DNA from: Erysipelotrichaceae bacterium OH741_COT-311
GTDB lineage: Bacteria; Bacillota_I; Bacilli_A; Erysipelotrichales; Erysipelotrichaceae
Reading direction: 5' to 3'
Assembly: GCA_003858585.1 (NCBI GenBank)
Contig: RQZE01000006.1
Coordinates: forward strand, 30,001-62,000
DNA: 32,000 nucleotides
Position numbers and translations under genes: made by a program. Of this stretch, positions 2 through 30,680 are shown in pieces. A model generated the notes under the pieces. It saw only the letters and a list, made by a program, of their open reading frames with translations. It had not been told where the DNA came from and ran no database searches. Numbering within the stretch: position 1 is the stretch's first letter; each line of letters starts with the position of its first letter.

Positions 2-418
2 AAAGGAATTCTTTTAGGCTTTGAAACGATGGAAACACCTTTTATGGATACGGTAGGTAAGTCAATGGAATATGTTAAGTTAGTCGATAGTCCATACTTA
101 CATGTATATCCGGATTTTGGTAACTGTACCAATGCGGCATTGAAGTATGGGCATAACGTCTTAGATGATTATCGACTAGGAAAAGGGCATATCATTGCCG
201 GACATTTAAAAGAAATGTTACCCGGGAAATATCGTGAAGTTCCTTTTGGAACGGGACAAACGGATTTCAAGGGTGGTATTGAAGTCTTGAAAGAATTAGG
301 TGTTCGTCGTTTTGTTGGTGAGTTTTGGTATGTTGGTCAAGAAGACTGGCAGAAGGATTGTTACTTCGCAAATACTTTTTTAAGAAGTTATTTGGATGAA
401 GTGTTTAAAGAAGATTAA
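2..418 (+). CDS. ulaE: L-ribulose-5-phosphate 3-epimerase (UlaE/SgbU-type sugar-phosphate epimerase), C-terminal part; the 5' end lies outside the window
   Basis: Frame 2 is open from the window edge (KGILLGFETMETPFMD...). The stretch YPDFGNCTNAA...GHIIAGHLKE...VPFGTGQTDF...GEFWY resembles the UlaE/SgbU C-terminus. Confidence 0.75.
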   Translation, partial: KGILLGFETMETPFMDTVGKSMEYVKLVDSPYLHVYPDFGNCTNAALKYGHNVLDDYRLGKGHIIAGHLKEMLPGKYREVPFGTGQTDFKGGIEVLKELGVRRFVGEFWYVGQEDWQKDCYFANTFLRSYLDEVFKED

Positions 419-463
419 AAAATAAGACCTTAAATTAAAAATAACATATAACAAAACACACAT

Positions 464-509
464 GAAAAAGGATATTATTCTAAATTATTATATTTAATAT
501 CCTTTTTTC
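464..509. terminator. Hairpin between convergent genes, possibly a bidirectional terminator
   Basis: AAAAAGGATATTA (465-477) pairs with TAATATCCTTTTT (495-507), giving a 13-bp stem and a 17-nt loop. The U/A tracts are partly inside the stem, so it is not a textbook terminator. Confidence 0.4.
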
Positions 510-543
510 ATATGAAGTTATATTATTTAAATCATTTTGAATT

Positions 544-1452
544 TTAAGGGTGAAGACTTAATATCCTTTTTTTATCATTATCATTCAATATTTTATGATA
601 AATTTTAGTTTCATCTAAATCTAAATGTTTTATTGTGATTTTTTTGAATTTTTTAATTGCACATTGACATTTCTCACAAGGAAATTTAGAGACGTAAATT
701 ATACCATTAAAGTTACTGTGGTTGTAAATAAAATTCTGTAAAATTTTTCTTTCACAACAATTGTAATGATTTATTTCGTATTTTATTGGAAGTTTATTAA
801 AAAAGTTAGTGTCATTTAATTTTAGGTGTTTATAATAATAAAAAAAGCAGTAAGGATAATGATCAAAAAAAAATCTAAAATCATCAATAAAATATCGACA
901 AATTCTTCTCTTAAAATCTTCATGCATATACATGTTATCAAAACATTCATGCATATACATGTTATCAAAACATTCATGCATATACATGTTATCAAAACAT
1001 TCATGCATATACATGTTATAAAAACATTCATGCATATACATGTTATAAAAACATTCATGCATATACATGTTATAAAAATATTCTGAATCATTTTTTAAAA
1101 ATTTTAGTTCAATATCACATGACGAGATATTTTCTAATGAATGAAATCTAATGGAATTATCATTTAGTGGGCAGTATAGTATATGTGCGTTCTTATATAT
1201 TTCGTTAATTATTTTTTTACCTTTTAATATCAAGTCAATAATATAGCGCTTTTCCTCTCTTTGATAAACATTGCCTTGATAATCTTCTGTCCCACTTATA
1301 GAAAAGTAGATTATACTCCTATTATCAGGGTCTTTAAAATCCTTTTTTAGAAGTGCAACACATTTATGTTTAATGATATTTTTAACTTCTATGTCATAAA
1401 GAGATTTTGTACTAAATAGTTCTTTAAGAAAATCTTCAAAAAAATCATTCAT
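544..1452 (-). CDS. Hypothetical protein with a C-terminal CDA-superfamily zinc-deaminase signature and an internal nonapeptide tandem repeat
   Basis: The sequence HYNCCERKILQNF...GIIYVSKFPCEKCQCAI contains C-x-E, then 23 residues, then P-C-x-x-C, which is the cytidine/dCMP/nucleic-acid deaminase motif. It has six CF[YD]NMYMHE repeats. Its ATG overlaps the upstream ORF stop by 8 nt (ATGAATGA). Confidence 0.6.
   Translation of the reverse strand: MNDFFEDFLKELFSTKSLYDIEVKNIIKHKCVALLKKDFKDPDNRSIIYFSISGTEDYQGNVYQREEKRYIIDLILKGKKIINEIYKNAHILYCPLNDNSIRFHSLENISSCDIELKFLKNDSEYFYNMYMHECFYNMYMHECFYNMYMHECFDNMYMHECFDNMYMHECFDNMYMHEDFKRRICRYFIDDFRFFFDHYPYCFFYYYKHLKLNDTNFFNKLPIKYEINHYNCCERKILQNFIYNHSNFNGIIYVSKFPCEKCQCAIKKFKKITIKHLDLDETKIYHKILNDNDKKRILSLHP
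921..1082. repeat. Tandem repeat of 27 bp x 6, in frame within the 544..1452 CDS
   Basis: The unit CATGCATATACATGTTAT(C/A)AAAACATT is read six times head to tail. The three copies at lower plus-strand coordinates have ATCAAAA (Asp) and the three at higher coordinates have ATAAAAA (Tyr). In the minus-strand protein the order is therefore CFYNMYMHE x3 followed by CFDNMYMHE x3. Confidence 0.95.
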
Positions 1453-2083
1453 TTATATCTTCTCCATTTCTATACTTAATTTGTAATTTAACATATATAT
1501 TATTATCTTCTTCTAAACTGAATTCAAACTCATTAAAATATTTAGATAAATTATAAGCATGGTGAACATATTCAGGATATTTAGAGTTATTAATATCATC
1601 AATTAATTTTGAATCTTTTTGTAAGATTTCGTTATAAATCTTCTTTGTAAAGTCAATATTACGATTTTCATTATTATCATCAGAATCTTCATTATGATTT
1701 ATTGTGTTATGACGACAGATTTCTGATAAAAGAATGAAAAATTTTCGAGAGTTATTTTCGTTATTATTTTCTTTTATATAATCATCATAAATTTTTCTCG
1801 CAAAATTACTGTATTGAATTGAGTTTATAGACAGATATAGTGTATCAATGAAAAAGTAAAAATCAGAAATAGACATTTTTATTGTATTATTATAGAAAGA
1901 ATCTTCATTTTGAGCAAGTTCTATCTCATAATTTACATTTGATTTTTCGTTTTGAGCAATTTTTGATAACAAATAAATATCAATAAGATGTGGTAAGTTA
2001 GAGATCGAATTTTTATTTATTGTACTTTCGTACGAAAAAAATTCATTATCATTTGTTTTTAAATGAAAGTTCAAGACAGCCAT
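1445..2083 (-). CDS. Hypothetical protein (212 aa, Asn/Asp/Glu-rich, no recognisable motif), first gene of a two-gene operon with the deaminase-like gene
   Basis: It is a long ORF in a very AT-rich islet and is translationally coupled to the downstream ORF. I found no TM segment, signal peptide or catalytic motif. Confidence 0.55.
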   Translation of the reverse strand: MAVLNFHLKTNDNEFFSYESTINKNSISNLPHLIDIYLLSKIAQNEKSNVNYEIELAQNEDSFYNNTIKMSISDFYFFIDTLYLSINSIQYSNFARKIYDDYIKENNNENNSRKFFILLSEICRHNTINHNEDSDDNNENRNIDFTKKIYNEILQKDSKLIDDINNSKYPEYVHHAYNLSKYFNEFEFSLEEDNNIYVKLQIKYRNGEDINE

Positions 2084-2233
2084 AACTTCTCCTTTAGTGA
2101 AATAATTGATTATATAATAAACCCATTTTTAATTTATGTCTACAGAAACAAGAATGAAAACTAAATTTAAATATCCAATAAATAGTGTATGATATAGTAA
2201 TGAAAAGAATATAAAAGGTAAAAGGGTAAAGAT

Positions 2234-3265
2234 ATGATTAAAACAGTAGGAATTGTAAGTTTATCAAGTGGAATGCTTGGAGAAGACTTTGTAAAACATG
2301 AATATGATTTAGGGATGAAACGATTAGAAGAATTTGGAGTAAACGTCAAGATTATGAAACATGCCTTGCGTGGCATTGCATACCTAGATCAACATCCGGA
2401 AAAAAGAGCGGAAGATCTTATTGAAGCATTTAAGGATGAAGAAGTGGATATAATTTTATGTGCGATTGGGGGAAATGATACCTATCGTTTACTTCCTTAT
2501 GTATTTGAGGAAGATGCATTAAAGAACGTAGTATCGCAAAAGGTATTCTTAGGTTTTTCAGATACAACCATTAATCATTTCATGTTACATAAATTAGGGA
2601 TTTATACCTTTTACGGACAATCGTTTATCGCTGATGTTTGTGAGTTGGATCAAGACATGCTTCCATATAGTAAACAATATTTCAAAGAGTTATTGGAAAC
2701 AGGCAAGATTCAAGCAGTTTATCCAAGTGATGTGTGGTATGAAGAGCGTAGTGATTTTAGTGAAAAAGCATTGAATACAAAGCGTGTTTGTCATAACAAT
2801 CAGCCATTTGAACTGTTACAAGGAGCAAGCACATTTGAAGGAAAAATCTTGGGTGGATGTTTAGAATCAATTTATGATTTATTGGTAACAAATCGACATG
2901 TAGATAGTGTGAGTTTACAAAAGAAATATGGTTTATTTCCAAGTAAGCAAGAATGGCAAGGTAAGATTTTATTGCTAGAAACCAGTGAAGAGAAGCCATC
3001 CGTAGAACACTTTAAAACCATGTTAGAGGCATTAAAACAGACCGGTATTTTTGATGTGATTTCAGGAGTTTTAGTTGGTAAACCAATGGATGAACTTCAT
3101 TATGAAGAGTACAAAGAAGTGTTAAAGGAAGTCATTCATAATCCAAAGTTACCTATTTTATACAATATCAATATTGGACATGCGACACCGAGATGTATTA
3201 TTCCTTTTGGTGTACATGCTAAAGTAGATGCTTTAAAACAAGTGATTACATTTCATTATGAGTAA
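2234..3265 (+). CDS. S66-family LD-carboxypeptidase (LdcA/MccF-like serine peptidase)
   Basis: The GFSDTT nucleophile motif, the C-terminal INIGHATP histidine motif, the length (343 aa) and the N-terminal IGIVSLSSG pattern are typical of peptidase S66. Confidence 0.8.
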   Translation: MIKTVGIVSLSSGMLGEDFVKHEYDLGMKRLEEFGVNVKIMKHALRGIAYLDQHPEKRAEDLIEAFKDEEVDIILCAIGGNDTYRLLPYVFEEDALKNVVSQKVFLGFSDTTINHFMLHKLGIYTFYGQSFIADVCELDQDMLPYSKQYFKELLETGKIQAVYPSDVWYEERSDFSEKALNTKRVCHNNQPFELLQGASTFEGKILGGCLESIYDLLVTNRHVDSVSLQKKYGLFPSKQEWQGKILLLETSEEKPSVEHFKTMLEALKQTGIFDVISGVLVGKPMDELHYEEYKEVLKEVIHNPKLPILYNINIGHATPRCIIPFGVHAKVDALKQVITFHYE

Positions 3266-3283
3266 TAATTAATAAAAATTAGG

Positions 3284-3311
3284 TTAATAAATCATAAATA
3301 TATGTTATAAT
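3284..3311 (+). promoter_or_regulatory. Putative sigma-A promoter for the KAP NTPase gene
   Basis: There is an extended -10 TGtTATAAT (3303-3311) with a -35-like TTAATA (3284-3289) at 16-nt spacing. The RBS GGGGGAAG lies 4 nt before the ATG at 3353. Confidence 0.5.
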
Positions 3312-3352
3312 ACATTATGTGAAAATTAAAACATTAATAATGGGGGAAGAAA

Positions 3353-5032
3353 ATGAAAGCTAATAAACAAATAAATTGGTTAAATGATGTCGAATATATT
3401 TTTAAAAATGATGAAAACAATAATCAAGCTGAAAGTGGAAATACAAAAGAAGATAATGATAAACTTTATGATAAAAGCAACATAAGTGCTTTAGTAAAAG
3501 TAATAACTGAATGCAAGGCTCCATTTAATATTTGTATTCAAGGAGAATGGGGATCTGGAAAAACAAGTTTAATGAAAGAATTGTGTAAAAAAATTGATCT
3601 TGAGAAAAAAATTGATCCTGAGAAAAAAATAAGCATTTACTATGATATCATGGATGATATTCGATTAGATAATTCAGAAAGAATTTTTTATAATTTCGTT
3701 GTCTATATGTTTAAAATACTACAAATCGAAAATGAAAAAATTACCAATTTCTTAACACAGATAGAAAAATCATTAGATATTGTTGATGATAAAAAGTATG
3801 GTTTATTAAAAATGATAGCTTTTTGGATTTTAGGAAGAGCAAAAAATCACTATAAACTTAAAGGAACTGATGGACAACTGAAAAATACTTTTGAGGAAAT
3901 TATAAGTGAATACTTAAAAAATGAAGAAGAAAAATACATTGTTTTATTCATCGATAATTTAGATCGATTAGATCCGGTTTTAGCATTGGAGTTTATAGAA
4001 AATTTGAAAGTCTTTCTAGATTGTAAATATTTAAAAATAGTTATGGCAATTGATTTTGACATAGTTGCCAAAGGAGTAAAAATCAAATACAGAGATGATA
4101 TTTCTCACACTAAAAGCATCCAGTTTTTTGAAAAGTATTTTCAGTTAAGTTTTAAAATGCCTCAGAATAAATATGAAATCGCTCAACTTATCGAAAACTT
4201 TAATAAAGACAATGGGGGATTGATAGAAATACCTCAAGATTTTACAGATTCGTTTGGTAATTTTTTAAAATCAATTTCATTTAATAATCCGAGAAGTATC
4301 AAAAAAATTTTTAATCAATTATTATTTTTAAATGAAGTGGACAAAACTGAGAATATAAAAAATTTTTATCGACTAATAGCTCTAATTATTGAATCGAAAA
4401 GTATTGAACTATATAGCGAAATTATCAATGGTAAAGTAAAATTAACAGAAACTGATGAGATTGATTCGAAATATCAAGAAGATTATGATAGTTTATTAGA
4501 ATTATTTTCGAATACAAAGCCTAAAATTATCGAAGAATTTTTAGATGAATTTACAAAAACAAAAAGTGCTTCAAAAGAAATTAAAATCTCATCGAAACAA
4601 AATCACACTATAAATATCGAAGTTCAAGAAGTAATCAGAAAGATGTTTAATGACATATGTGATAAAGACCATTTTGATCTTGAAAATAAGGAACAATTTG
4701 GTAAAGAATCAAAAGCGGAACGTACAGGTGATATTAAACATATAGAATTGGTAGATGATTATAGTGAAATAACCGTAACAAATGGTAAAGGGCAAGGGCT
4801 CTATTTTACAAGAAAAGATGGGCAATTTAAAGTATATCTTTCTGGAGATTATAACGGAAAAATGATGAATGATGGAATGCAGACGCTAAATGGTAATTTA
4901 AAAGATAATATCTGGGATGAAGAAAAATATTATGCAACAGAGCTGCTAATGGACGAAAATAAATATCAAGAATTTTTAGGTAAAGTTATATCCAAATTAA
5001 AAACTGCAACAAAACCTGAAAAAAAAGATTAA
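3353..5032 (+). CDS. KAP-family P-loop NTPase
   Basis: The Walker A motif GEWGSGKTS and the Walker B region IVLFIDNLDRLDP form the characteristic KAP pattern (GxWGSGKT ... FIDDLDR). The C-terminal ~130 aa are unassigned. Confidence 0.75.
   Translation: MKANKQINWLNDVEYIFKNDENNNQAESGNTKEDNDKLYDKSNISALVKVITECKAPFNICIQGEWGSGKTSLMKELCKKIDLEKKIDPEKKISIYYDIMDDIRLDNSERIFYNFVVYMFKILQIENEKITNFLTQIEKSLDIVDDKKYGLLKMIAFWILGRAKNHYKLKGTDGQLKNTFEEIISEYLKNEEEKYIVLFIDNLDRLDPVLALEFIENLKVFLDCKYLKIVMAIDFDIVAKGVKIKYRDDISHTKSIQFFEKYFQLSFKMPQNKYEIAQLIENFNKDNGGLIEIPQDFTDSFGNFLKSISFNNPRSIKKIFNQLLFLNEVDKTENIKNFYRLIALIIESKSIELYSEIINGKVKLTETDEIDSKYQEDYDSLLELFSNTKPKIIEEFLDEFTKTKSASKEIKISSKQNHTINIEVQEVIRKMFNDICDKDHFDLENKEQFGKESKAERTGDIKHIELVDDYSEITVTNGKGQGLYFTRKDGQFKVYLSGDYNGKMMNDGMQTLNGNLKDNIWDEEKYYATELLMDENKYQEFLGKVISKLKTATKPEKKD
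3587..3630 (+). repeat. 18-bp tandem duplication (2.4 copies) inside the KAP gene
   Basis: AAAAAAATTGATCTTGAG, then AAAAAAATTGATCCTGAG, then AAAAAAAT, encoding KKIDLE-KKIDPE-KKI just after the Walker A helix. Confidence 0.9.
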
Positions 5033-5082
5033 TAAAAAATAAATTTTATTTCATACAATTTGTTTAGATTGTTATATATAAA

Positions 5083-5112
5083 AAAGACCTATTGAATAGG
5101 TCTTTCATTTTT
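5083..5112. terminator. Bidirectional rho-independent terminator shared by the KAP gene and the convergent aldolase gene
   Basis: AAAGACCTAT-TGA-ATAGGTCTTT forms a 10-bp stem (5083-5105). It has T-rich tails on both strands and overlaps the stop codon of the minus-strand gene. Confidence 0.65.
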
Positions 5113-5733
5113 ATAATATTCATCCAGTTTAGCTTCAAAGTAGTCTAAGTCTTGTTTTAACTTCTCTACATCTTGATGTAAGATATGCTCTTTTTTAAAG
5201 ATACCACCTGCTGTACCGATGTATTGATAACCACCTTTTAAATAGTTTATTACATTATCTGCCGTAACTCCTCCTACTGCCATAAGCTTTAAATCCTCTA
5301 CAGGTTCTTTAAGTTTCTTGGCGTAGTTACAAGAATATTCATTGGCTGGAAATACCTTGATGATAGAAGCTTTTAGAACATGTTGCTTGTAGATTTCTGT
5401 GGGGGTTAAGGCACCCGGTACAACTGTTACGTTATGCTTTAGTGCATAATCAATCATTTCCGGACTATAGCCACTTGGAGAAAGAACGAATTTTACCTTT
5501 GCATCAATCACTTCTTTTAATTGTTCAAAGGTAATAACGGTACCTGCTCCAACACATAACGTTGGATAACGTTGTATAATCTCTTTGATAATGGAAATAG
5601 CCCCTTCACTATTTAGGGTTATTTCTACATTTTTTATATAGCGACTATCGTTTAAGACATCCATTAACGTAAGTACTTGTTCTAAGTGATAGCCCCTTAA
5701 AATCAAGACGATATTACTTTTTAGATTAATCAT
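5089..5733 (-). CDS. eda: KDPG / 4-hydroxy-2-oxoglutarate aldolase family protein (Eda-like)
   Basis: The motifs GAGTV...FVLSP...VPG..TPTE...KVFPA...GGV follow the class I KDPG aldolase pattern. I prefer the start at MINLK (5733, an 8-nt overlap with the upstream stop) over the ORF-track start at 5757. Confidence 0.7.
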   Translation of the reverse strand: MINLKSNIVLILRGYHLEQVLTLMDVLNDSRYIKNVEITLNSEGAISIIKEIIQRYPTLCVGAGTVITFEQLKEVIDAKVKFVLSPSGYSPEMIDYALKHNVTVVPGALTPTEIYKQHVLKASIIKVFPANEYSCNYAKKLKEPVEDLKLMAVGGVTADNVINYLKGGYQYIGTAGGIFKKEHILHQDVEKLKQDLDYFEAKLDEYYKNERPIQ

Positions 5734-6424
5734 GGCGTCTAGAATTACTTGCAACAATCACAATGAGACGTAACATTTGAGCAATCGCTGTTGCCAGAGC
5801 AGCTACATAAGTGAGTGCAGCAGCATCCAAAACTTTTTTCGCTCCGCTTAATTCTTGTGAGTTTAAGTAGTTTCCTTCTTTTAATGAAACCAATGCGCGC
5901 TTAGAAGCATCAAATTCTGTTGGTAATGTAAATAATTGAAACAATACGGCAAAGCCAAATAAGGCAATACCAAAATAGGCAATGGTTGGTGTTGTATCTT
6001 GTTGGAAAAATAAACCAACTAAGATAAGCGGCCAAGATAACATGGAACCAATGTTGGTCATCGGGATAATCGCATTACGTAAGCGTAGCGGTTTATACCC
6101 ATTAGCATCTTGTATGGCATGCCCTACCTCATGGCAGGCAACTCCAATAGCGGCTGTTGATGAAGAGTTATATACGCTATCAGATAGACGTATGATTTTA
6201 CTTCTTGGATCATAGTGGTCAGTTAAATTACCATTGATGCGATCAATACGCACGTGTTGCAACCCATTTTGGTCTAACATTCTACGTGCAGCATCTTGTG
6301 CTTTTAGCCCATTGCTTGCATATTGTTTGCTATAGGTTTGATAGGTGCTTTTTACTTTGTTACTTGCCCAAAGGGCAAAGAGGGCACAAGGGACAATGAA
6401 TACAAGGTATGTCCAATCAAACAT
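5726..6424 (-). CDS. Membrane zinc metallopeptidase (YugP-like, HExxH)
   Basis: It has an N-terminal TM helix, the HEVGHAIQ zinc motif and C-terminal hydrophobic helices. Confidence 0.75.
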   Translation of the reverse strand: MFDWTYLVFIVPCALFALWASNKVKSTYQTYSKQYASNGLKAQDAARRMLDQNGLQHVRIDRINGNLTDHYDPRSKIIRLSDSVYNSSSTAAIGVACHEVGHAIQDANGYKPLRLRNAIIPMTNIGSMLSWPLILVGLFFQQDTTPTIAYFGIALFGFAVLFQLFTLPTEFDASKRALVSLKEGNYLNSQELSGAKKVLDAAALTYVAALATAIAQMLRLIVIVASNSRRHD

Positions 6425-6439
6425 ATCATCACTCCTTTA

Positions 6440-6805
6440 TTATTTTACAATGTCATATTGCCAAGAAGTAATACCTCCAAAATCATAGACGTTCGTATAG
6501 CCTAAGTCTACTAGTATATTTGCAGCTTGTCTTGAACGATTACCACTACGACAATATACTAATATCTTATCATTTTTATCAAGTTTATTTAAGGCTAACG
6601 TTGATAATTGATCTAAAGGTAAGTTAATCGCATCTTTAATATATCCTTCTTTAAATTCTTCCGGAGTACGTACATCCACGATGATAACATCTTCCTTCTG
6701 TATAATTTCGTATGCTTCTTTTTGACTAATGTGTTTATATCCTTTACTATTGCTGAAGCAACCAGCTAAGAATAATGATAACGATAATGCTAATAATTTT
6801 TTCAT
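6440..6805 (-). CDS. Rhodanese-domain lipoprotein (sulfurtransferase-like)
   Basis: It has the lipobox LFLAGC in its signal peptide and the active-site loop CRSGNRS. Confidence 0.8.
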   Translation of the reverse strand: MKKLLALSLSLFLAGCFSNSKGYKHISQKEAYEIIQKEDVIIVDVRTPEEFKEGYIKDAINLPLDQLSTLALNKLDKNDKILVYCRSGNRSRQAANILVDLGYTNVYDFGGITSWQYDIVK

Positions 6806-6894
6806 TTTTTCACCTCACAATCATTGTAGCGAATTCCAATAATTAAGCAAACGAAATGCCCATATTATAAGAGTTTTTTATCTTGGGTATACAA

Positions 6895-6903
6895 TGATAT
6901 AAT
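6895..6903 (+). promoter_or_regulatory. Possible extended -10 promoter of the osmoprotectant ABC operon
   Basis: TGaTATAAT lies about 95 nt upstream of the ATG at 6997. There is no convincing -35. Confidence 0.35.
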
Positions 6904-6996
6904 GTACATAAAGTAGTGATGTTATAAGAAATGTAAAGTCCTTGCACATCTTTTCATATCTAGTGTACAGTAAAAGAAGTTTTTTAGGAGGTAACC

Positions 6997-8529
6997 ATGT
7001 TACAAGAATTGATACAAGTATTTATAGAACAATTTGATTTCTTTATACATGCGTTTTTTACCCATATTAAAATATCCTTTATTTCTGTTTACTTTGCAAG
7101 TGTCTTAGGAATTGGTTTAGGCTTATGGATTAGTAAGCATAAGAAATATGCCCAAGGTGTTATCAGTGCGGTTAGTTTGTTGTATACGATACCTTCAATT
7201 GCGCTGTTAGGATTTTTGATTTCCATTTCAGGGATTGGAAATACTACTGCAATTATTGCTTTAACTCTTTATGGATTACTTCCTATGGTAAGAAGTACTT
7301 ATACCGGCTTATTGGAAGTAGATCCCGCCTTAATTGAGGCAGCAAGAGGAATGGGAAGTGATGAGAAACAAATCTTAAAGAATGTAAAAATTCCATTGGC
7401 ATTTCCTTTTATCTTTTCCGCTTTTCGAAATATGACAACCATGACGATTGCCCTTGCAGGGATTGCTTCCTTTGTTGGAGCCGGTGGGCTAGGAGTTGCG
7501 ATTTATCGAGGAATTACTACCAATAATGTTATGATGATTTACATTGGTAGTATCTTAGTGGCTGCTTTGGCGATTCTTACTGATGGATGTTTACAATTGT
7601 TAGAAACATATTTTATAACCTATCGTAAAAAGGGCTTAGCTTTTATTCGATATAGTTTTCGTTTTGCTTGGATTGTTGTTGTATTAGTGCTTTTTCCTTA
7701 TGAATATCATAGTAATGTGATTAAAATTGCCGGTAAACCGACAACGGAAGGTTATATCTTGGCAGAGTTGGTATCCATTACCATTGAAGAACATACGGAT
7801 TTAAAGGTAAAACTTACCCATGGTATTGGTGGAGGAACCGGTAATATTCATCCTGCTATGGTAAAAGGTGATTTTGATATTTATAGTGATTATACCGGTA
7901 CGATATGGCAAGTGGTATTAAAGGAAGAGGAGCCTTATAATGAAAGGCGCTTCTATGAATTAAATACAAAGTATTTAATGGAGTATGGATTGATGTTTAA
8001 GGGGTTATATGGTTTTAATAATACGTATGGCTTAGCGGTTCATAAAGAGATTGCTGATCGTTATCAGTTAAAGACGTATAGTGATTTAGCGAAGTTTTCC
8101 AATCAATTAATCTTTGGGGCAGAGTATGATTTTTATCAACGCGAGGATGGATTTAATGCCTTAAAAGATGCTTATCATTTTCAATTTAAAAAGGTGGTTG
8201 ATTTAGATAATGGATTGAAGTATCAAGCTATGGCAAATAAACAGATTGATGTTATGACAATCTTTACAACGGATGGTATGCTTACAAGTAGTGATGTTGT
8301 AGTCTTAGAAGATGATCTCATGTTTTATCCGTCTTATTTGGCTGGTAGTGTTATACGACAAGCAACGTTAGAAGAATATCCCCAATTGGAGGACGTCCTT
8401 TTACTCTTAGAGAATCGTATTAGTGATCAAGAGATGGCTCAAATGAATTATGAGGTCGAAGTGTTAAATAAAAAGCCATCGGAAGTAGCCTATGCTTTTT
8501 TGAAGGAGAAAGGATTGTTAAAGAAATGA
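6997..8529 (+). CDS. Osmoprotectant (glycine betaine/choline/carnitine-type) ABC transporter, fused permease and substrate-binding protein
   Basis: The N-terminal ~210 aa form a BPD-type permease with multiple TM helices, and the C-terminal ~290 aa form an OpuAC/OpuBC-like binding domain. A strong RBS (AGGAGG) precedes the start. Confidence 0.75.
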   Translation: MLQELIQVFIEQFDFFIHAFFTHIKISFISVYFASVLGIGLGLWISKHKKYAQGVISAVSLLYTIPSIALLGFLISISGIGNTTAIIALTLYGLLPMVRSTYTGLLEVDPALIEAARGMGSDEKQILKNVKIPLAFPFIFSAFRNMTTMTIALAGIASFVGAGGLGVAIYRGITTNNVMMIYIGSILVAALAILTDGCLQLLETYFITYRKKGLAFIRYSFRFAWIVVVLVLFPYEYHSNVIKIAGKPTTEGYILAELVSITIEEHTDLKVKLTHGIGGGTGNIHPAMVKGDFDIYSDYTGTIWQVVLKEEEPYNERRFYELNTKYLMEYGLMFKGLYGFNNTYGLAVHKEIADRYQLKTYSDLAKFSNQLIFGAEYDFYQREDGFNALKDAYHFQFKKVVDLDNGLKYQAMANKQIDVMTIFTTDGMLTSSDVVVLEDDLMFYPSYLAGSVIRQATLEEYPQLEDVLLLLENRISDQEMAQMNYEVEVLNKKPSEVAYAFLKEKGLLKK

Positions 8530-9266
8530 GTGCCATTGTTAAGTTTGAACATGTCAGTAAAGATTATCAAAAGAAAACCATCATTGAAGATTTTGATTTA
8601 GAGATTGAAGAAGGTAGTTTTTTAGTTATTATTGGATCAAGTGGAAGTGGTAAAACAACGATTATGAAGATGATTAATGGTTTAGTGCTTCCAAGTAAAG
8701 GAAATGTGTATGTCCAAGGGAAAGATGTTTTATCGCAAGATTTGATTGCTTTGCGCAGAAGTATAGGCTATGCCATACAGGGGAATGTCTTATTTCCTCA
8801 TCTGACGATTAAAGAAAACATTGCTTATGTATTAAATCTATTAAAGAAAGATCAAAAAGAAATTGATGAAGTTGTATTAAAGAGTTTGCGTTTATTAAAC
8901 TTGCCGGAGGATGTGTTGCATCGTTATCCTAGTCAATTAAGTGGGGGACAAAATCAACGGGTTAATATTGCTCGTGCATTAAGCAATCAACCAAGGATTT
9001 TATTGATGGATGAACCGTTTGGGGCATTGGATGCGATTGTCAAATATCAATTACAAAGAGATTTAAAGAAGATGCATCAAGAGTTAAAGAATACCATTGT
9101 ATTTATTACGCATGACATTCATGAAGCATTGAAGTTAGCGACTCATATTTTAGTTATGGATCAAGGTAAGATACAGCAATACGCCACAGTGAAAGAGATT
9201 GTAGAAAAACCTGCCAATGCCTTTGTGGCTCAGCTTTTAAATATGGCATGTAAGGAGATTGTATGA
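8526..9266 (+). CDS. ABC transporter ATP-binding protein (partner of the fused Opu-like permease)
   Basis: It has Walker A GSSGSGKTT, the signature LSGGQNQR and Walker B LLMDEPFGALD. Its ATGA overlaps the upstream stop. It has no CBS tail. Confidence 0.85.
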   Translation: MSAIVKFEHVSKDYQKKTIIEDFDLEIEEGSFLVIIGSSGSGKTTIMKMINGLVLPSKGNVYVQGKDVLSQDLIALRRSIGYAIQGNVLFPHLTIKENIAYVLNLLKKDQKEIDEVVLKSLRLLNLPEDVLHRYPSQLSGGQNQRVNIARALSNQPRILLMDEPFGALDAIVKYQLQRDLKKMHQELKNTIVFITHDIHEALKLATHILVMDQGKIQQYATVKEIVEKPANAFVAQLLNMACKEIV

Positions 9267-9970
9267 AATTAGTTGTAAGTCATTTAAAGAAGCGTTTTGG
9301 AAGTAAGGAAGTATTAAAGGATATTGATTTTACATTTCAACAAGGTAGTATTTATGCGTTATTAGGACGTAATGGTTCCGGAAAGACAACGTTGTTTAAT
9401 CTTATTGCATCTAACTTTAGTAAAGATGCCGGTACTGTGAAACTTATCGAAGAAGATGGTTCCATGCATGATATTAAAAATGAAGACATCTTTTTAATGG
9501 TTGCAGAACCTATTTTGCCTCGTTTTTTAACAGGTTACGAGTTTATTAAGTTTTTTGTAGAAGTGCATCATGTAACGAATGTTGATATTGATGCGTATTT
9601 TAATCAGATTGAATTTCATCCACAAGATCGTCATCGCTTGATTCAAAGTTACTCTACGGGAATGAAGAATAAGTTACAGATGATTATGTTTTTAATTTTA
9701 AAACCTAAGATTATTTTAATGGATGAACCATTAACTTCTCTTGATGTAGTGATTCAATTGCAAATGAAACGAATTATCAAACAAATCCAAAAAGACCACA
9801 TTATTATCTTTTCAACGCATATCTTACAGCTTGCGAAAGATTTATGTGAAGAGTTAGTGATTTTAAATGATGGGTATTTACAGGCAATTGATCAAGAAGT
9901 TATGCATACGCAAGATTTTGAACATAATATTATTGAATTATTAAAGGATAAAGAAGATGAACATCATTAA
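9263..9970 (+). CDS. ABC transporter ATP-binding protein (ABC-2/export-type)
   Basis: It has Walker A GRNGSGKTT, the degenerate signature YSTGMKNK and Walker B ILMDEPLTSLD. Confidence 0.8.
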   Translation: MKLVVSHLKKRFGSKEVLKDIDFTFQQGSIYALLGRNGSGKTTLFNLIASNFSKDAGTVKLIEEDGSMHDIKNEDIFLMVAEPILPRFLTGYEFIKFFVEVHHVTNVDIDAYFNQIEFHPQDRHRLIQSYSTGMKNKLQMIMFLILKPKIILMDEPLTSLDVVIQLQMKRIIKQIQKDHIIIFSTHILQLAKDLCEELVILNDGYLQAIDQEVMHTQDFEHNIIELLKDKEDEHH

Positions 9971-11519
9971 TTTATATATTCGCTTAAGTTATATTCAAGT
10001 ATGTCAATTGATCAATGCGATAGTGGCTTTTTTCTATAACTTCCCTATTATCAAGAAGATGCATGGACATACGTATGGTTTTTATGGATTCAAAAGTGTT
10101 GTTAATCGCATAGCCTTTGTTGGAGCCTTTCTCTTTCATTTTTTTAAGGATGCTCTTAGCTATGTTGTAGTTTTAGGTGGAATAAGTGTAGGAATTAAGT
10201 CTTTGTTAGGTTTACTACCTATTGTAAATGACTTAAGTGTTTTGGAAATCTTAATTTTATTAAATCTAGCGATGTTTATCTTTGTGTCGAATACCATGAA
10301 TAACATTGTATCCATTAAGCAGTTAAAAACGTATTATCATTTACCGCTTATGGATTTAGTCTATATCAAAGAATTTGTAACACCTTTCAATACATTTATC
10401 AATGAATGGATTATATTAAGCATAGTAGCACATTTTACTTCGATGATTACCTATGTCCAAGCATTTTTAATTTCCTTGTTGTTTTTAACAACCAACATTG
10501 TATGTTCTGCATTGAATTTAAAGTTACATCATGTGAAGAAATCTTTGGGTGGCTTTATCCTGTTTATCATTTTCTTAGTGATTTTTTTTGGACTTGTGTA
10601 TAGTTATCGTTTGTGGGGACAAAATCAAACGTTTGTTTTATTGGTGTTAAATGGTATGTCTTTGGTTGCTTTGCCAATGGCAATTGGTATCATTCAAACG
10701 TATCCGCATTACGATGGTATCTTAGAGGATTCTACGTTGAGTAAGTATGAGGCTGTAACGAAGTATCGTTATACAAATCAAGTAGCCTTAAAAGATAGTG
10801 ATGTTCATATTAAAAAGAGTAATAAGAAGGGCTATGCCTTACTCAATGATCTGTTTTTTAAACGTAATTTTCGCTTATTGGTAAAACCTTCCTTGATAAA
10901 AACAGGTGTTTATCTTGCTATTACTGCATTCTATGTCTTGGCAATGCGATTGAATTGGTTTCATTTTGCTGAAAAAGATCATCTGTATGCCATCTTGTCT
11001 ACTACACCCATTGTGATGTATATCGGTTGTAACGATTCTTCGATTATTATTTCGATGTATTATAACTGCGATAATAGTTTACTGGAGTATGGATTTTATA
11101 AACAATCCAAAGCAATCTTAGAGATGTTGTATTTGCGTTTATGGTCAATGTTAAAGATTTTCTTAATGCCAACCTCTGCTTTTCTGTTCTTTGTTGCCAT
11201 TGCATCAAAGTTGTCAAAAATTCCTTTGGATGATATGTTAAAACTAATGGCATCCAGTCTATTTCTAATGGTCTTTTTTGCCTTCTATTTACTCTTAATT
11301 TATTATTTATTAGTTCCGTTTACTCAAGATGAAAAGATTAAAAATCCCATTTATTATATTGTTAATTTTGCAGTGTATATGATCTTTATTTTTGGTAATA
11401 AATACATTACAAGTGTAGATATGTTGTTTTATCTTTCGTTGATAGTAATGATAGTGGTTGTCGTTTTTGGTGGGGTAGCAATTTATTATCTGGCTCCAAA
11501 AACGTTTCGTAGAAAATAA
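9957..11519 (+). CDS. Polytopic membrane protein, putative permease partner of the preceding ABC ATPase
   Basis: The 520-aa protein has many hydrophobic helices, overlaps the ATPase gene by 14 nt, and has no recognisable family motif. Confidence 0.55.
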   Translation: MNIINLYIRLSYIQVCQLINAIVAFFYNFPIIKKMHGHTYGFYGFKSVVNRIAFVGAFLFHFFKDALSYVVVLGGISVGIKSLLGLLPIVNDLSVLEILILLNLAMFIFVSNTMNNIVSIKQLKTYYHLPLMDLVYIKEFVTPFNTFINEWIILSIVAHFTSMITYVQAFLISLLFLTTNIVCSALNLKLHHVKKSLGGFILFIIFLVIFFGLVYSYRLWGQNQTFVLLVLNGMSLVALPMAIGIIQTYPHYDGILEDSTLSKYEAVTKYRYTNQVALKDSDVHIKKSNKKGYALLNDLFFKRNFRLLVKPSLIKTGVYLAITAFYVLAMRLNWFHFAEKDHLYAILSTTPIVMYIGCNDSSIIISMYYNCDNSLLEYGFYKQSKAILEMLYLRLWSMLKIFLMPTSAFLFFVAIASKLSKIPLDDMLKLMASSLFLMVFFAFYLLLIYYLLVPFTQDEKIKNPIYYIVNFAVYMIFIFGNKYITSVDMLFYLSLIVMIVVVVFGGVAIYYLAPKTFRRK

Positions 11520-11545
11520 AAAGTGCCTAGCACTTTTTATTTTAT
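11519..11545. terminator. Bidirectional rho-independent terminator
   Basis: AAAAGTGC-CTA-GCACTTTT forms an 8-bp stem followed by TATTTTAT. It sits between convergent genes. Confidence 0.7.
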
Positions 11546-13429
11546 CAACTTCATGAATTCTTCGTAGCTTTTACAGTGAAGGACTTTAGTAAGGGAAGGT
11601 ATATCGGTGTAAAGGCTCGTAATCCATTCAAAGAAGAGAGTTAATATGTGATTGTCATAACGATCAACAGCCAGTAAGAAGATAATGCTTACTTCATAAT
11701 CTCCCCATTTTAAGGGTTTGTTTAAAATCATAATAGAAATATTAGATTGATAGACAAGACTGGAATCTAGGGCATGAGGAATCGCAAAGCCATAGGCAAA
11801 AGAAGTTGGGGAGAAGCTTTCTCGTTTCATCAGACTTTCATAGAAGGCTTCCTCGACATTCTTGCTTTGGTATAAATCATCGGCTAAAAATTTTAAGGTA
11901 GCTTCTACGGTTTCAAATTCTTTGTTGGTGTAGAAGTGTTCCTTCGTAATGATGCGATCTAAATAAATTTCATATTCTTTCTTTAGTTTCTTTTGGGTTA
12001 AAAGCGATATGGATGAGCGTATCTTTGCTTCATCTTCATGGGTCATAAAGAAAGAGATTTGAATCGTTAAAATATCAAGACGATGTTTTAAGGGAGTCGT
12101 CGTAATGATCAAATCGGGTTTTAGTTCATGAATTTTATCTTCTTCAAAGTAGGTAAATTGTTGAATAATTTCAAGACTATCTTCAAAGATATTAGTAATT
12201 TTGGCAATTGGAATCTTACTAATTGCCTGTGTTTTTGGAAAGATTAAAACCGCTTTGTATTTTTTAGGAAACATTTGTTCATAAGCTAAGCCTAAGTGTA
12301 AGGCAATAAAGCCAATTTCAGCTTCTTGGATAGTAATGTTTAACAGTTTTGATAAAAAAGCAGAGGCAGATACGGCAAGTTCAAAGATTAAAGGAAATCG
12401 TTTCTTAATTTCATTGAGATAGAAATTAGGGGAATGAATTTTATCTTTGTTACGTTGAACAAGAGCTTGTAGATGTAAACTTAAGCCAACTACAAGACTT
12501 TTGTTTGATGAAAAGTTAATGCCGTATTGACTGTATATGTAGTCAATGAGTTCATGGATAATCATTTCATATTGATGATTGTTATTTAAAAATAACCATT
12601 TACAATTATAGTTATAGCTTTTCTTACTCATTAGTAAGCAGGAAAGCAACATAATTTCTGATTCTACAATAGGAAGTTGAAAGACATTGGAAATCTGTTG
12701 AAAGAAGTCCGTTGATATTTGATATTCAACGGTTTTTTTAATGTCTTCATTTTCAATGTTACTTGGTAAATAGTTAAAGTCTAACATACGTTCAATCGCA
12801 ACCCCAATATGAATCATTAAGGTTGGAAAGTGAATTTCATCGATGTCATATTCATACTGATGGAATAAGCCTTCCATGATTTGTTTGGCTTTTAAAAGAT
12901 CGAATTTCTTATATAAACTTGCGATTTCATTCATGTTGAAGAAATTGTTAGAGGCTTCTTGAGTGAGTAAGTTTTTATATAAAAGACGTTTACTTTTTTC
13001 ATCTCCTTGTAGTACTAAATAATTATCATGTTTGCTGATCTTTAGATTTGGATAGTTACTCAGCATTTCTTTTAAACGTTTTAAATCATTATCTAAGGAG
13101 TATTCACTGATGTAGATTTCATCTAGAAGTTGGTGAATGCTAATCTTTTGTTTCTTAATTAAAAGCTTTTGTAAGATATAATCGCATCGTTCTTTTGGTG
13201 TGATGGGAATATTGATGTCTTGTTGGTTTTTAAGTAAGTGATTTTTATTGTCTAAAAGACGATAACCTTTCCTTAAATCAGATTCAATGACTTTATGTTG
13301 TCGGTTAATGGCTTCAATGTCATAGCGAATCGTACGATCGGTAACATTTAACATTTGGGCAAGTTGTTTGCCTGTAATCCAATCGCTTTGATTTTCCAAT
13401 AACATGAGTAGTTTATCTTTTCTTTTCAT
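11537..13429 (-). CDS. PRD-domain transcriptional regulator of the BglG/LicR/MtlR type (HTH, two PRDs, an EIIB-like domain and an EIIA-2-like domain)
   Basis: It has an N-terminal winged HTH (ITGKQLAQMLNVTDRTIRYDIEAIN), central PRD-like helices and a C-terminal EIIA type-2 pattern (GFAIPHA). I prefer the start at MKRKDKLL (13429), because the 24-codon upstream extension covers a promoter and operator palindrome. Confidence 0.75.
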   Translation of the reverse strand: MKRKDKLLMLLENQSDWITGKQLAQMLNVTDRTIRYDIEAINRQHKVIESDLRKGYRLLDNKNHLLKNQQDINIPITPKERCDYILQKLLIKKQKISIHQLLDEIYISEYSLDNDLKRLKEMLSNYPNLKISKHDNYLVLQGDEKSKRLLYKNLLTQEASNNFFNMNEIASLYKKFDLLKAKQIMEGLFHQYEYDIDEIHFPTLMIHIGVAIERMLDFNYLPSNIENEDIKKTVEYQISTDFFQQISNVFQLPIVESEIMLLSCLLMSKKSYNYNCKWLFLNNNHQYEMIIHELIDYIYSQYGINFSSNKSLVVGLSLHLQALVQRNKDKIHSPNFYLNEIKKRFPLIFELAVSASAFLSKLLNITIQEAEIGFIALHLGLAYEQMFPKKYKAVLIFPKTQAISKIPIAKITNIFEDSLEIIQQFTYFEEDKIHELKPDLIITTTPLKHRLDILTIQISFFMTHEDEAKIRSSISLLTQKKLKKEYEIYLDRIITKEHFYTNKEFETVEATLKFLADDLYQSKNVEEAFYESLMKRESFSPTSFAYGFAIPHALDSSLVYQSNISIMILNKPLKWGDYEVSIIFLLAVDRYDNHILTLFFEWITSLYTDIPSLTKVLHCKSYEEFMKLIK

Positions 13430-25851: not shown

Positions 25852-28017
25852 ATGTATTTAAATCATTTGCAAGTCGTAAATTACAAAAATTTAAGAGCTA
25901 CACATTTTTCTTTCGTTGAAGGAGTAAATACAATTATTGGGGAAAATGATTCTGGAAAATCAAATGCAATGACAGCTATTCGCATATTGTTGGATGATTC
26001 ATACTACTACAACACAAAAAGACTTAAGAATAATGACTTTTCGGATACTTTGAATAACTGGAAAGGACATTGGATTATTTTTTCAGCAGTATTTGGAAAT
26101 ATTACATCTGTGGATAAACAAACGGAGATATGTGCAGAACTAGTGCCTGATAATGAGAATGAGGATTTTCTGAAATCCTATATAAAAAGTGGAAATGACA
26201 ATATTGGTGTAATTTCTCTTTTTATTCGTCCACAAAAGCAAATAAGAAAAAAATTAAGTGAAATTACCGATCCGATAGAATTTGAAATAGAGCGGAATAA
26301 AATAAGAATTACAGATTATGAATTTTATTTTACAAGTCGAGCACAAACGAATTTTATAAATGAAACAATATACAAAAAAATTGTTGGAGATTTAGATAAC
26401 GGACATTGTACAAATCCTGACGAAGATAATGATGAAATTTTAGGATGTAAATTAAATATAGCGGATGTACAGGATCATATATCAGTGGTATTTGTTGATG
26501 CTTTACGAGATGTAGAAAGTGAATTAAAAAAGCCTAAAAACCCTATCAGAAGAATTATTGAATCAATAGAATCATTGATAGAAGAATCAGAAATCAGCTC
26601 AATTAAAGACGAAATTATGAAATTGAACAAATCCATATCTGAAGTCAAACAAGTAGAACTTGTTGGTAAAAAAATTAATGAGAAATTATTGGACATGATA
26701 GGAATGGTGTATTCCCCAGAAATCATTTTAGAATCGGGGATGAAGGATGATTTAAAATCATTATCACGATATTTATTTTTAAAACCATCAAAACAGAATG
26801 ATATAGAATATTTAGGATTAGGACATCTAAATATGATTTATATGGCTTTGAAAATAGTTGAATATGAAATCAATAGAACGAGAGAACTTATAAATATTAT
26901 GATTGTTGAGGAACCAGAGGCGCATATTCATACACATATTCAAAGAACTTTGTTTGATAAGTTAAAAGTTGCAAAGGATTATACCCAAATAATAACTACT
27001 ACTCATTCAACACATTTAGCTGAAGTTTCGAATATAAAAAGTATAAATATTTTGAAATCTTTGGATGATAAGAGTATTTCAATGCAACCTTATAACGGCT
27101 TAGATGAGTTTGGTAAAGAATTTCTTAACTTAAAGAACTTAACATTATCAAATTGTATTGAACGCTATCTAGATGCAAAGCGTACAGTATTACTCTTTTC
27201 GAAAGGGGTTATTTTAGTAGAAGGAGATGGAGAAGAAATTTTAATTCCTAATATTGTAAAGAGAGCTTTTGGAGTTTCTTTGGATGAGCTTGGAATTGGA
27301 CTCATAAATGTAGGAAGTGTATCCTTTGAATATATTGCGAGTCTATTTGCAGATATAAGAATAAATAGACCATGCGCAATTGTTACTGATGAAGATATTC
27401 AAATAGTAGAAAGTAGCAGTAGTTTTTATAAGATGCAAGCTCAAACAAGAGGAGAAAGTAGAAAAGAAAAGCTAGAAACGCTATACGACAGAAATGAATG
27501 GGTACAGTCTTTCTATGCTCCGCATACATTAGAAATTGATTTTGCTTTAACGAATAATAGGCATAATAAGAAATATATCAATAAAGTAATAGAGTTGAAT
27601 TATAATGAAGATACTACAATAAAAAAACATAAAAATAATATAGATACTGGCTCTGATGCACATTGCGCTAATACAATTTTAACGTTAGCAAGAGGTATGG
27701 GAAAAGGTTGGTATGCAGCAATTTTATCAAATTATATTGATAGTGCAGTTTGCATCCCACAGTATATATTATCTGCTATTGCATTTGCAAGTAGAGAAAT
27801 AATAAATGTTGATATTATATTTAAGATGGTTGAATATTCATTAAATCAGTATGAGGAAACTGAGGACAGTATTGAATTAAAAGAAAAATTTAAGATGGTA
27901 AAAGATGTTACAGACAAAAAATGTTGTATTCAGAATTTTAGAGATGCATATGAAGACGCTGTTGTATCAAAATTATTAATTGAGGTTGATAAATATTGTG
28001 AAAGTTGGTGTGAATAA
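25852..28017 (+). CDS. gajA: OLD-family ATP-dependent nuclease (ABC-type ATPase plus Toprim), GajA-like / class 2 OLD
   Basis: It has Walker A GENDSGKS (aa 30-37), Walker B IMIVEEPEAHIH, and the Toprim motifs ILVEGDGEEILIP and AIVTDED. It is directly coupled to a UvrD-like helicase gene (TAATG). Confidence 0.75.
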   Translation: MYLNHLQVVNYKNLRATHFSFVEGVNTIIGENDSGKSNAMTAIRILLDDSYYYNTKRLKNNDFSDTLNNWKGHWIIFSAVFGNITSVDKQTEICAELVPDNENEDFLKSYIKSGNDNIGVISLFIRPQKQIRKKLSEITDPIEFEIERNKIRITDYEFYFTSRAQTNFINETIYKKIVGDLDNGHCTNPDEDNDEILGCKLNIADVQDHISVVFVDALRDVESELKKPKNPIRRIIESIESLIEESEISSIKDEIMKLNKSISEVKQVELVGKKINEKLLDMIGMVYSPEIILESGMKDDLKSLSRYLFLKPSKQNDIEYLGLGHLNMIYMALKIVEYEINRTRELINIMIVEEPEAHIHTHIQRTLFDKLKVAKDYTQIITTTHSTHLAEVSNIKSINILKSLDDKSISMQPYNGLDEFGKEFLNLKNLTLSNCIERYLDAKRTVLLFSKGVILVEGDGEEILIPNIVKRAFGVSLDELGIGLINVGSVSFEYIASLFADIRINRPCAIVTDEDIQIVESSSSFYKMQAQTRGESRKEKLETLYDRNEWVQSFYAPHTLEIDFALTNNRHNKKYINKVIELNYNEDTTIKKHKNNIDTGSDAHCANTILTLARGMGKGWYAAILSNYIDSAVCIPQYILSAIAFASREIINVDIIFKMVEYSLNQYEETEDSIELKEKFKMVKDVTDKKCCIQNFRDAYEDAVVSKLLIEVDKYCESWCE

Positions 28018-29904: not shown

Positions 29905-30680
29905 CCGGGTCTTATGTCATAATTGTGTTAGTGGTAAAAAGTCTAATAAAATCAAGGGTTTTAGTGCTTCTACAAACTATTAAAACTCTTGATACAATAA
30001 TCTATGTGTTGTTTAGAATCATCTAATTTGTAGATGCTTGTAAACAGCACATAGAACCTAGAAAGGAGGAATGAGTTTTGTCAAAGATACAAAAAGATAA
30101 AATTAAAGCTCAAGGATTCAGCATAGAAATTTACACAGAAGACTTCAAAAATGATTATATATCTTTAACAGATATTGCAAGATATAAAAATGAAGATGAT
30201 CCAAGATTTGTTATTCAGAATTGGATGAGGAATAGAAACACATTAGAATTTATTGGATTATGGGAAATATTAAATAACAAAGATTTTAACCGTGTGCAAT
30301 TCGACACGTTTAAAATGGAAGCCGGCTTAAATAGATTTACAATGACACCTCAAAAATGGATTGAAAATACAAATGCAAAAGGTATTGTATCGAAATCTGG
30401 GAGATATGGAGGAACATATGCTCATAGTGATATTGCATTAGAATTTGCTTCTTGGTTATCTCCAGAGTTTAAGTTGTATATCATTCAAGATTATAAAAGA
30501 TTGAAATCTGATGAAACTTCTAGGTTATCACTCACTTGGAATTTACACAGAGAAATATCTAAAATAAATTACAAGATACACACAGATGCCATTCAAACAT
30601 ATCTTCTAAATGATTTAACAGATAGTCAATTAGGATTTCAATATGCAAGCGAAGCAGATATGTTGAATGTTGCCTTATTT
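29905..30680 (+). repeat. Right (intact) copy of the direct repeat (leader plus the 5' part of kilA-N)
   Basis: See 25036-25786. The offset between the copies is about 4.87 kb. Confidence 0.85.

Follow-up and report, generated by a model that had tools for sequence, protein, structure and literature searches.

What role might be played by two overlapping genes that have no detectable relatives and that occupy an AT-rich, strain-specific cassette in the genome of an oral bacterium? The genes in question belong to the oral strain Erysipelotrichaceae bacterium OH741_COT-311 and are located towards one end of the 32,000-nucleotide (nt) stretch of contig RQZE01000006.1 that was analyzed here (referred to hereafter as the window). 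Gene 1 (EII25_03970; 1445..2083, minus strand) specifies an acidic, Asn-rich protein of 212 amino acids (aa) with an isoelectric point (pI) of 4.8 and a net charge of -14. Gene 2 (EII25_03965; 544..1452, minus strand) lies downstream of gene 1 and specifies a 302-aa protein, the C-terminal portion of which carries a zinc-deaminase-like signature. We consider it possible, with a confidence that falls somewhat short of even, that the cassette was acquired horizontally, that it resides in a variable defense spot, and that it acts as a toxin-antitoxin or abortive-infection-like module in which a deaminase is neutralized by its partner protein.

A strain-specific cassette encodes two overlapping genes

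The cassette (426..2210, a feature of 1785 bp that is not assigned to a strand) occupies a variable spot as a strain-specific insert of 1.8 kb, and it contains within it a promoter-like site, both genes, and a terminator. The conspecific genome used for comparison was the metagenome-assembled genome (MAG) JAUMYM010000002 (locus L001), which was found by a scan for the S66 peptidase in one genome per species; note that the comparison of presence and absence rests on two genomes of the species. Using blastn, positions 1-425 of the window could be aligned with positions 7533-7957 of L001 (99.5% identity), positions 2211-3265 with positions 7975-9029 (97.4% identity), and positions 5071-9000 with positions 9094-13022 (98.3% identity). 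Positions 426-2210 are missing from the MAG, in which 17 bp are found instead; both junctions of the insert are clean when compared with L001 and the core flanks are conserved. An earlier reading, made from the letters of the window without database searches (the sequence-only reading), had raised the prospect of a related strain that lacks the insert, and the MAG, which is 98-99% identical, is such a strain.

The composition of the insert sets it apart from its surroundings, with a GC content of 0.20-0.26 over positions 450-2250 compared to 0.33-0.39 in the flanks, and of 0.23 and 0.22 in the two genes of the cassette compared to 0.34-0.40 in core genes. Both open reading frames (ORFs) are real coding regions. 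The GC content at the three codon positions is 0.31/0.18/0.20 in the 302-aa ORF and 0.31/0.19/0.16 in the 212-aa ORF, such that the first position is the highest in both. Moreover, for both ORFs the other five frames contain 12-60 stops, and the chance of encountering a stop-free frame at the GC content of the cassette is ~2e-13 for 302 codons and ~1e-9 for 212 codons.

Signals that could direct expression of the two genes as a unit are present within the insert. A promoter-like site (TAGACA-17-TATTAT; 2114..2142, minus strand), identified by consensus match only (10/12), is located upstream of gene 1, and the Shine-Dalgarno sequence AAAGGAG is found ~6 nt ahead of the ATG of gene 1 at position 2083. 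Genes 1 and 2 share an 8-nt overlap that on the minus strand reads ATGAATGA; gene 2, which has a ribosome-binding site (GGAG) 9-10 nt 5' of its own ATG, is predicted from this overlap to be translationally coupled to gene 1. A terminator-like hairpin (AAAAAGGATATTA...TAATATCCTTTTT; 459..514, minus strand) follows gene 2. The RNA of this hairpin has a predicted folding energy of -26.1 kcal/mol (z = -4.84), which was equaled by 0 of 200 shuffles, even though a simple terminator scanner had overlooked it because its stem is AT-rich. The sequence-only reading had described the overlapping minus-strand pair, its position between a convergent gene and a divergent S66 peptidase gene, the AT-richness of the segment relative to its flanks, and the hairpin downstream, and each of these features was recovered in our analysis. 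(Note that an 18-nt copy, 94% identical, of the 3' arm of the terminator, TTAATATCCTTTTTT at positions 494-511, occurs at positions 558-575 in the final codons of the 302-aa ORF; the copy may have arisen by chance or through duplication of a short segment where the gene ends.)

The C-terminal domain of the 302-aa protein is deaminase-like

An in-frame tandem repeat, which had gone unmentioned in the sequence-only reading, divides the 302-aa protein into three parts. The N-terminal region (residues 1-125; 1078..1452, minus strand) has a pI of 5.9 and belongs to no recognizable family. The repeat itself has a 27-nt unit that is present in 6.4 copies (912..1083, minus strand; TRF score 302, 96% matches) and encodes FYNMYMHEC three times and then FDNMYMHEC three times, that is (F[YD]NMYMHEC)x6, over residues ~126-179; the resulting linker is acidic (pI 4.5) and rich in Met, His, Glu, and Cys. 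The C-terminal domain (residues 180-302; 547..915, minus strand) is basic, with a pI of 9.35 and a net charge of +11, and it is here that the deaminase-like signature is found. With a maximum 19-residue hydropathy of 0.54, the protein has no membrane segment and no signal-peptide-like N-terminus and is thus predicted to be cytoplasmic. The Pfam search found no P-loop and no domain that reaches its cut-off. In these respects our findings agree with the earlier reading, according to which the protein is devoid of a signal peptide, a P-loop, and a delivery domain.

The putative active-site segment (667..759, minus strand) comprises C232-C233-E234, 23 residues, and then P258-C259-E260-K261-C262. 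The CxE-x23-PCxxC motif noted earlier is therefore present with the residues as they had been read, and it is rare, as the pattern [HC]xE-x18-40-PCxxC arises in 0.07-0.17% of composition-preserving shuffles. When the full 302-aa protein was compared with Pfam, the sole match was to dCMP_cyt_deam_1 (E 0.021, 15.1 bits, residues 229-270), and this match spans profile positions 51-94, which are the columns of the motif. When the C-terminal 123 aa were used alone, three of the four Pfam matches were to deaminase families: SNAD4 (E 0.0032, residues 234-287, 18 bits versus a cut-off of 27), dCMP_cyt_deam_1 (E 0.0052, 17.1 bits versus a cut-off of 25), and OTT_1508_deam (E 3.2, 8.2 bits versus a cut-off of 27). 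Substitution of C232, C233, E234, C259, C262, and C264 with Ala resulted in no deaminase match in Pfam, and none of six shuffles matched a deaminase family in the same database.

Profile methods gave results of the same kind. For these comparisons we used an alignment of E. coli TadA and 13 phage TadA/GuaD-like deaminases (23 phage deaminases were gathered by a scan of viral contigs). Alignment of the protein against this TadA/GuaD-like set with hhalign gave a score of 33.2 (P 4.8e-5, probability 68%), whereas 300 shuffles gave 10.9 +/- 2.4 with a maximum of 24. Similarly, when the window was divided into stop-to-stop segments and the 122 that reach 50 aa or more were scored with a hidden Markov model (HMM) of the same alignment, the 302-aa protein ranked first (12.2 bits, P 5.8e-6) and the runner-up scored 2.8 bits. 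In the AlphaFold2 model of the protein, which was made from the single sequence and is of low confidence (predicted local distance difference test (pLDDT) score of 36), there is a helix at residues 235-243, a strand at 251-254, a helix at 260-266, a strand at 273-276, and a helix at 283-290. In the deaminase core, the order of elements is helix 2, strand 3, helix 3, strand 4, and helix 4 (PMC3239186), and the order in even this low-confidence model would match that of helix 2 through helix 4.

These comparisons suggest that something other than chance underlies the deaminase signature; the support for it is consistent but sub-threshold, and the Pfam E-values of 0.003-0.02 are no more than suggestive. 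On balance, we consider it probable that residues ~200-302 constitute a divergent domain of the cytidine deaminase (CDA) superfamily. The protein carries the motif that defines this superfamily but does not attain the score threshold of any curated family, and because the curated thresholds are missed we use the term deaminase-like rather than deaminase. The deaminase assignment made in the sequence-only reading can therefore be upheld in part: the motif and profile matches are non-random and are lost when the ligands are knocked out, but all of the scores are sub-threshold. The same reading had also entertained the idea that the N-terminal half is a second deaminase unit devoid of ligands. 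This idea we reject, as the N-terminal half gave hhalign probabilities of 0.1-1% and no Pfam match at E <= 10, and comparison of the N- and C-terminal halves revealed no similarity.

Both cassette proteins are orphans

Both genes are true orphans. In a word-indexed search of 5.8 billion proteins, each of the two cassette proteins matched only itself. When the 302-aa protein was used as the query in an exhaustive phmmer search of 1.84 billion cluster representatives, the search returned the protein itself and 18 others, none of which is a true homologue; all 18 matches fall within residues ~109-194 and are to unrelated, mostly eukaryote-like proteins with period-9 repeats. No homologue of the cassette proteins was found by tblastn against phages and plasmids or in scans of viral and metagenome contigs, sequence searches of the PDB gave no match, and neither protein has a meaningful match in PADLOC, PHROGs, or NCBIfam. 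For the 212-aa protein, which in addition has no match in Pfam, the lone entry was dihydroorotate oxidase, at 14 bits and far under the cut-off of 301 bits. The sequence-only reading had discerned no motif in this upstream partner, which is consistent with its lack of matches in Pfam, PADLOC, PHROGs, NCBIfam, and the PDB, and had anticipated that the pair would not be matched by PADLOC, where indeed the number of matching families was 0.

The 212-aa protein was found on one other contig, in the Logan assembly of SRR9701139, which is 100% identical to positions 1049-12083 of the window and most likely comes from the same strain. This assembly, which was built from short reads, breaks at window position 1049, inside the repeat array. 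Because the Logan contig stops within the repeat, the copy number of the repeat given above rests on one assembly; the copy number may vary.

The cassette resides in a variable spot near defense-type genes

On its 3' side the pair of genes faces a convergent fragment of a xylose-isomerase-like TIM-barrel gene (29..418; Pfam AP_endonuc_2), and on its 5' side lies the divergent S66 peptidase gene (2234..3265). Another AT-rich, strain-specific insert (3266..5070, plus strand) is located ~1 kb from the cassette and is likewise missing from L001, in which 64 bp are present instead. The gene that it contains (3353..5032, plus strand) specifies a 559-aa KAP P-loop NTPase (Pfam KAP_NTPase, 3.7e-24) with PADLOC matches to PDC-S20 (9e-17), PifA (4e-13), and QatA (8e-13). 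The KAP insert is placed between the stop codon of the S66 gene and a shared terminator. The S66 gene, flanked as it is by two variable inserts, is 97.4% identical to its counterpart in the MAG, compared to 98.3-99.5% for the flanking core DNA, and this slightly higher divergence would be expected if recombination occurs at the spot. The junctions of both inserts were devoid of target-site duplications, terminal inverted repeats, integrase genes, and tRNAs, and searches with Rfam and for tRNAs revealed neither an RNA antitoxin candidate nor a tRNA integration site.

The cassette thus shares with the cargo of defense hotspots a variable presence, a fixed core site, and an adjoining insert that encodes a KAP NTPase resembling defense candidates. 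That the cassette was acquired horizontally, into a variable intergenic spot beside a defense-type insert, is a component of the interpretation put forward here and one that we hold with somewhat less than even confidence. The two intergenic sites that flank the S66 gene would then represent hotspots in this oral species for the insertion of accessory or defense cargo.

A defense island is also present at the far end of the window (24-31 kb), with type IIG restriction, Gabija, and PDC-S22 components. Within it, positions 25852-29756 (plus strand) contain a complete Gabija-like pair comprising GajA (721 aa, PADLOC 4e-234) and GajB (579 aa, 1e-205), the stop codon of the former and the start codon of the latter overlapping by 1 nt. 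Directly after this pair, positions 30078-30938 (plus strand) encode a KilA-N domain protein that is unrelated to the KAP NTPase and matches PDC-S22 (2e-129). At positions 23960-25132 (plus strand), two consecutive ORFs, one of 248 aa and the next of 140 aa, match successive segments (28-304 and 308-428) of a 721-position model of a type IIG restriction-methylase; this region looks like a broken, truncated type IIG restriction gene.

How the cassette might function

The net charges of the partner (-14) and of the C-terminal domain (+11) are complementary. Furthermore, an acidic partner that is encoded upstream and by an overlapping gene reproduces the gene order of type II toxin-antitoxin loci. 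These considerations suggest a mechanism in which a bicistronic mRNA would be made from the one promoter, and in which the overlap would couple translation such that the acidic 212-aa protein is made at the same time as the basic deaminase-like domain, to which it probably binds. The partner would most likely neutralize this domain. Were the partner to be lost or displaced, for example upon phage infection, a zinc deaminase would be freed in which the zinc is held by C232 (or C233), C259, and C262, and in which E234 serves as the proton shuttle. The freed enzyme could then cause growth arrest by acting on cytosine, or on a different base, within nucleic acids or nucleotides. In this model we infer the fold, the catalysis, the toxicity, the neutralization by the partner, and the role in defense. 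A toxin-antitoxin or abortive-infection function is favored by the gene order, the charge pattern, the strain-variable position, and the defense-type neighbors, none of which amounts to a test of it.

Several observations weigh against such a function. Every deaminase score falls below the Pfam gathering cut-offs (15-18 bits compared to 25-27 bits). The confident core of the hhalign alignment spans only ~25 residues (IYVSKFPCEKCQCAI aligned with LYVTLEPCxMCxgAI), and hhalign places the HAE column ambiguously, on KYE instead of on CCE. A specific affinity with the AID/APOBEC deaminases, which we also considered, is weak: the score against an AID/APOBEC alignment of five sequences, of which APOBEC3A is the one that was checked against the PDB, was 22.5, which is above that of 150 of 150 shuffles and yet corresponds to an hhalign probability of 5%. 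The AlphaFold2 single-sequence models have pLDDT scores of 36 (302-aa protein) and 38 (212-aa protein) and so provide no usable structure; when the former was used as a query, Foldseek found no match at E <= 0.001. Purifying selection and conservation of the pair cannot be shown because there is no homologue in the collections searched, and constraint on the ORF could be relaxed, given that its middle is taken up by a near-perfect repeat of recent expansion. The partner has neither a DNA-binding domain nor a known immunity domain in Pfam or PADLOC. Finally, the defense context is one of proximity only, as the core S66 gene parts the cassette from the KAP insert.

Some of these observations would be accounted for if the cassette were functionless or decaying orphan cargo, a remnant left behind in a recombination hotspot by some AT-rich element, such as a phage or plasmid, that has so far gone unsampled, with the motif having arisen by chance in a Cys-rich protein. 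We regard this explanation as rather unlikely. It is compatible with the failure to find homologues in the collections searched, with family scores that are all sub-threshold, with a repeat expansion in the ORF that looks unconstrained, and with junctions at which there are neither mobility genes nor a target-site duplication; moreover, the broken type IIG restriction gene in the window shows that defense cargo does decay in this genome. Yet at 22% GC it is extremely improbable that ORFs of 212 and 302 codons would both be intact unless they have been maintained or were very recently acquired, and the promoter-like site, the Shine-Dalgarno sequences, the overlap, and the terminator are all intact. 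Chance is also hard to reconcile with motif and profile matches that beat all shuffles and disappear upon knock-out of the ligands. The Cys-rich character of the protein raises the separate idea that it binds metal or participates in redox reactions, with PCEKC serving as a thioredoxin/glutaredoxin-like CxxC and the MYMHEC repeats binding metal. By our own reading of the sequence, the strand-CxxC-helix-strand segment GIIYVSKFPCEKCQCAIKKFKKITIKHLDLD does resemble the N-terminus of glutaredoxin/NrdH, the repeat supplies six copies of Met-x-Met-His-Glu-Cys, and the confident hhalign core is limited to the PCxxC segment. We nevertheless consider a metal-binding or redox function to be very unlikely: Pfam at E <= 10 contains three deaminase families among the matches and no thioredoxin/glutaredoxin family, hhalign against NrdH gave a score of 10, which is that of the shuffle background (the control used two NrdH sequences), the ~40 residues that follow the CxxC are too few for a thioredoxin fold, and the correctly spaced upstream CxE would be left unexplained.

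The evidence from the motif, Pfam, hhalign, and the HMM would serve equally well if the C-terminal domain of the 302-aa protein were a real deaminase-fold enzyme that is not a toxin. The two proteins would then form a two-subunit enzyme of mobile-element origin that modifies nucleic acids or nucleotides, with the 212-aa protein as the specificity or scaffold subunit and with a function in, for example, base modification, anti-restriction, mutagenesis (as a mutator), or nucleotide salvage. The size of the partner, which is large for an antitoxin, its lack of an antitoxin or immunity domain, and the fact that in profile comparisons the TadA/dCMP-type family, and not the toxin clades, gave the best similarity all point in this direction. 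What makes a non-toxin enzyme unlikely in our view is that the gene pair does not perform a housekeeping function, as it is missing from a conspecific genome, and that the protein comes nowhere near the score thresholds set for the families of salvage and tRNA-editing enzymes and has no NCBIfam match. The pair also adjoins defense-type cargo, and strong charge complementarity of the kind seen here is more typical of inhibitor-enzyme pairs. Among these explanations, neutralization of a deaminase-like toxin by the 212-aa protein is the one that we favor, albeit tentatively.

Comparison with known systems

The cassette can be compared with four groups of known systems. With the CDA superfamily, which includes the TadA/dCMP type (PF00383) and AID/APOBEC-like clades such as SNAD4 (PF18750) (PMC3239186), the 302-aa protein has in common the [H/C]xE-x23-PCxxC motif, a hydrophobic strand right before the PC, predicted helices that start at both motifs, and a basic domain; past the second motif a further strand-helix-strand is predicted, as in the helix-4 division of the superfamily. 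It departs from the superfamily norm in having Cys rather than His as the first ligand together with what appears to be a helix-4 layout, as CxE is typical of the other deaminase division, that with the C-terminal hairpin (PMC3239186). Also unlike the CDA families are its sub-cut-off scores, its lack of detectable relatives, and its unique N-terminal region and 9-aa repeat linker.

Deaminase toxins that are paired with immunity proteins (PMC3239186) resemble the cassette in having a divergent, fast-evolving deaminase domain at the C-terminus and a tightly linked gene for a small acidic partner, and they too are strain-variable. In contrast to these polymorphic toxins, the cassette encodes no secretion or trafficking domain and no RHS, PAAR, or WXG domain, and the 302-aa protein is predicted to be cytoplasmic. 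In addition, the partner gene is located upstream rather than downstream, the terminator follows gene 2, and the partner has no match to SUKH, SUFU, or Imm families. A parallel may also be found in AvcD-AvcI and the dCTP-deaminase anti-phage systems (PMC10511110; 10.1101/2021.04.26.441389), in which a cytoplasmic, growth-arresting deaminase effector specified by accessory DNA is restrained until infection, an arrangement that for the cassette is proposed. The N-terminal domain of AvcD resembles a P-loop NTPase, and AvcD is neutralized by an RNA antitoxin (PMC10511110; bioRxiv 10.1101/2021.04.26.441389), whereas the cassette has no P-loop, no PADLOC match, and no Rfam RNA, and its putative neutralizer is the 212-aa protein.

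With type II toxin-antitoxin and AbiE-like modules the cassette shares a bicistronic arrangement with an 8-nt overlap, an acidic first product, a basic domain in the second product, a promoter-like site and a terminator of its own, and a strain-variable location near defense genes. It differs from type II toxin-antitoxin modules in that neither protein belongs to a known toxin or antitoxin family, the upstream protein has no DNA-binding domain, and both proteins are larger than is typical. We know of no protein-antitoxin pair with a CDA-fold toxin that has been described. The cassette might accordingly be the first abortive-infection module in which a cytoplasmic CDA-fold nucleic-acid deaminase is controlled by a protein antitoxin. 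The deaminase lineage would be so divergent that no relatives can be detected, and the repeat that joins the domains, being expandable and rich in metal ligands, could serve to tune activity or to sense it, although we judge it improbable that all of this holds. The value of the cassette is at present limited and nothing about it can yet be generalized, because it is a singleton with no family for comparison. If true, the model would reveal a deaminase scaffold that is both very divergent and, at ~120 aa, very small, and that could be of interest for base editing. Moreover, an active deaminase restrained by a protein partner would represent a new control logic for deaminase-based bacterial immunity; among the known deaminase systems, AvcID makes use of an RNA antitoxin, the dCTP deaminases consist of a single gene, and the toxins with immunity proteins are secreted.

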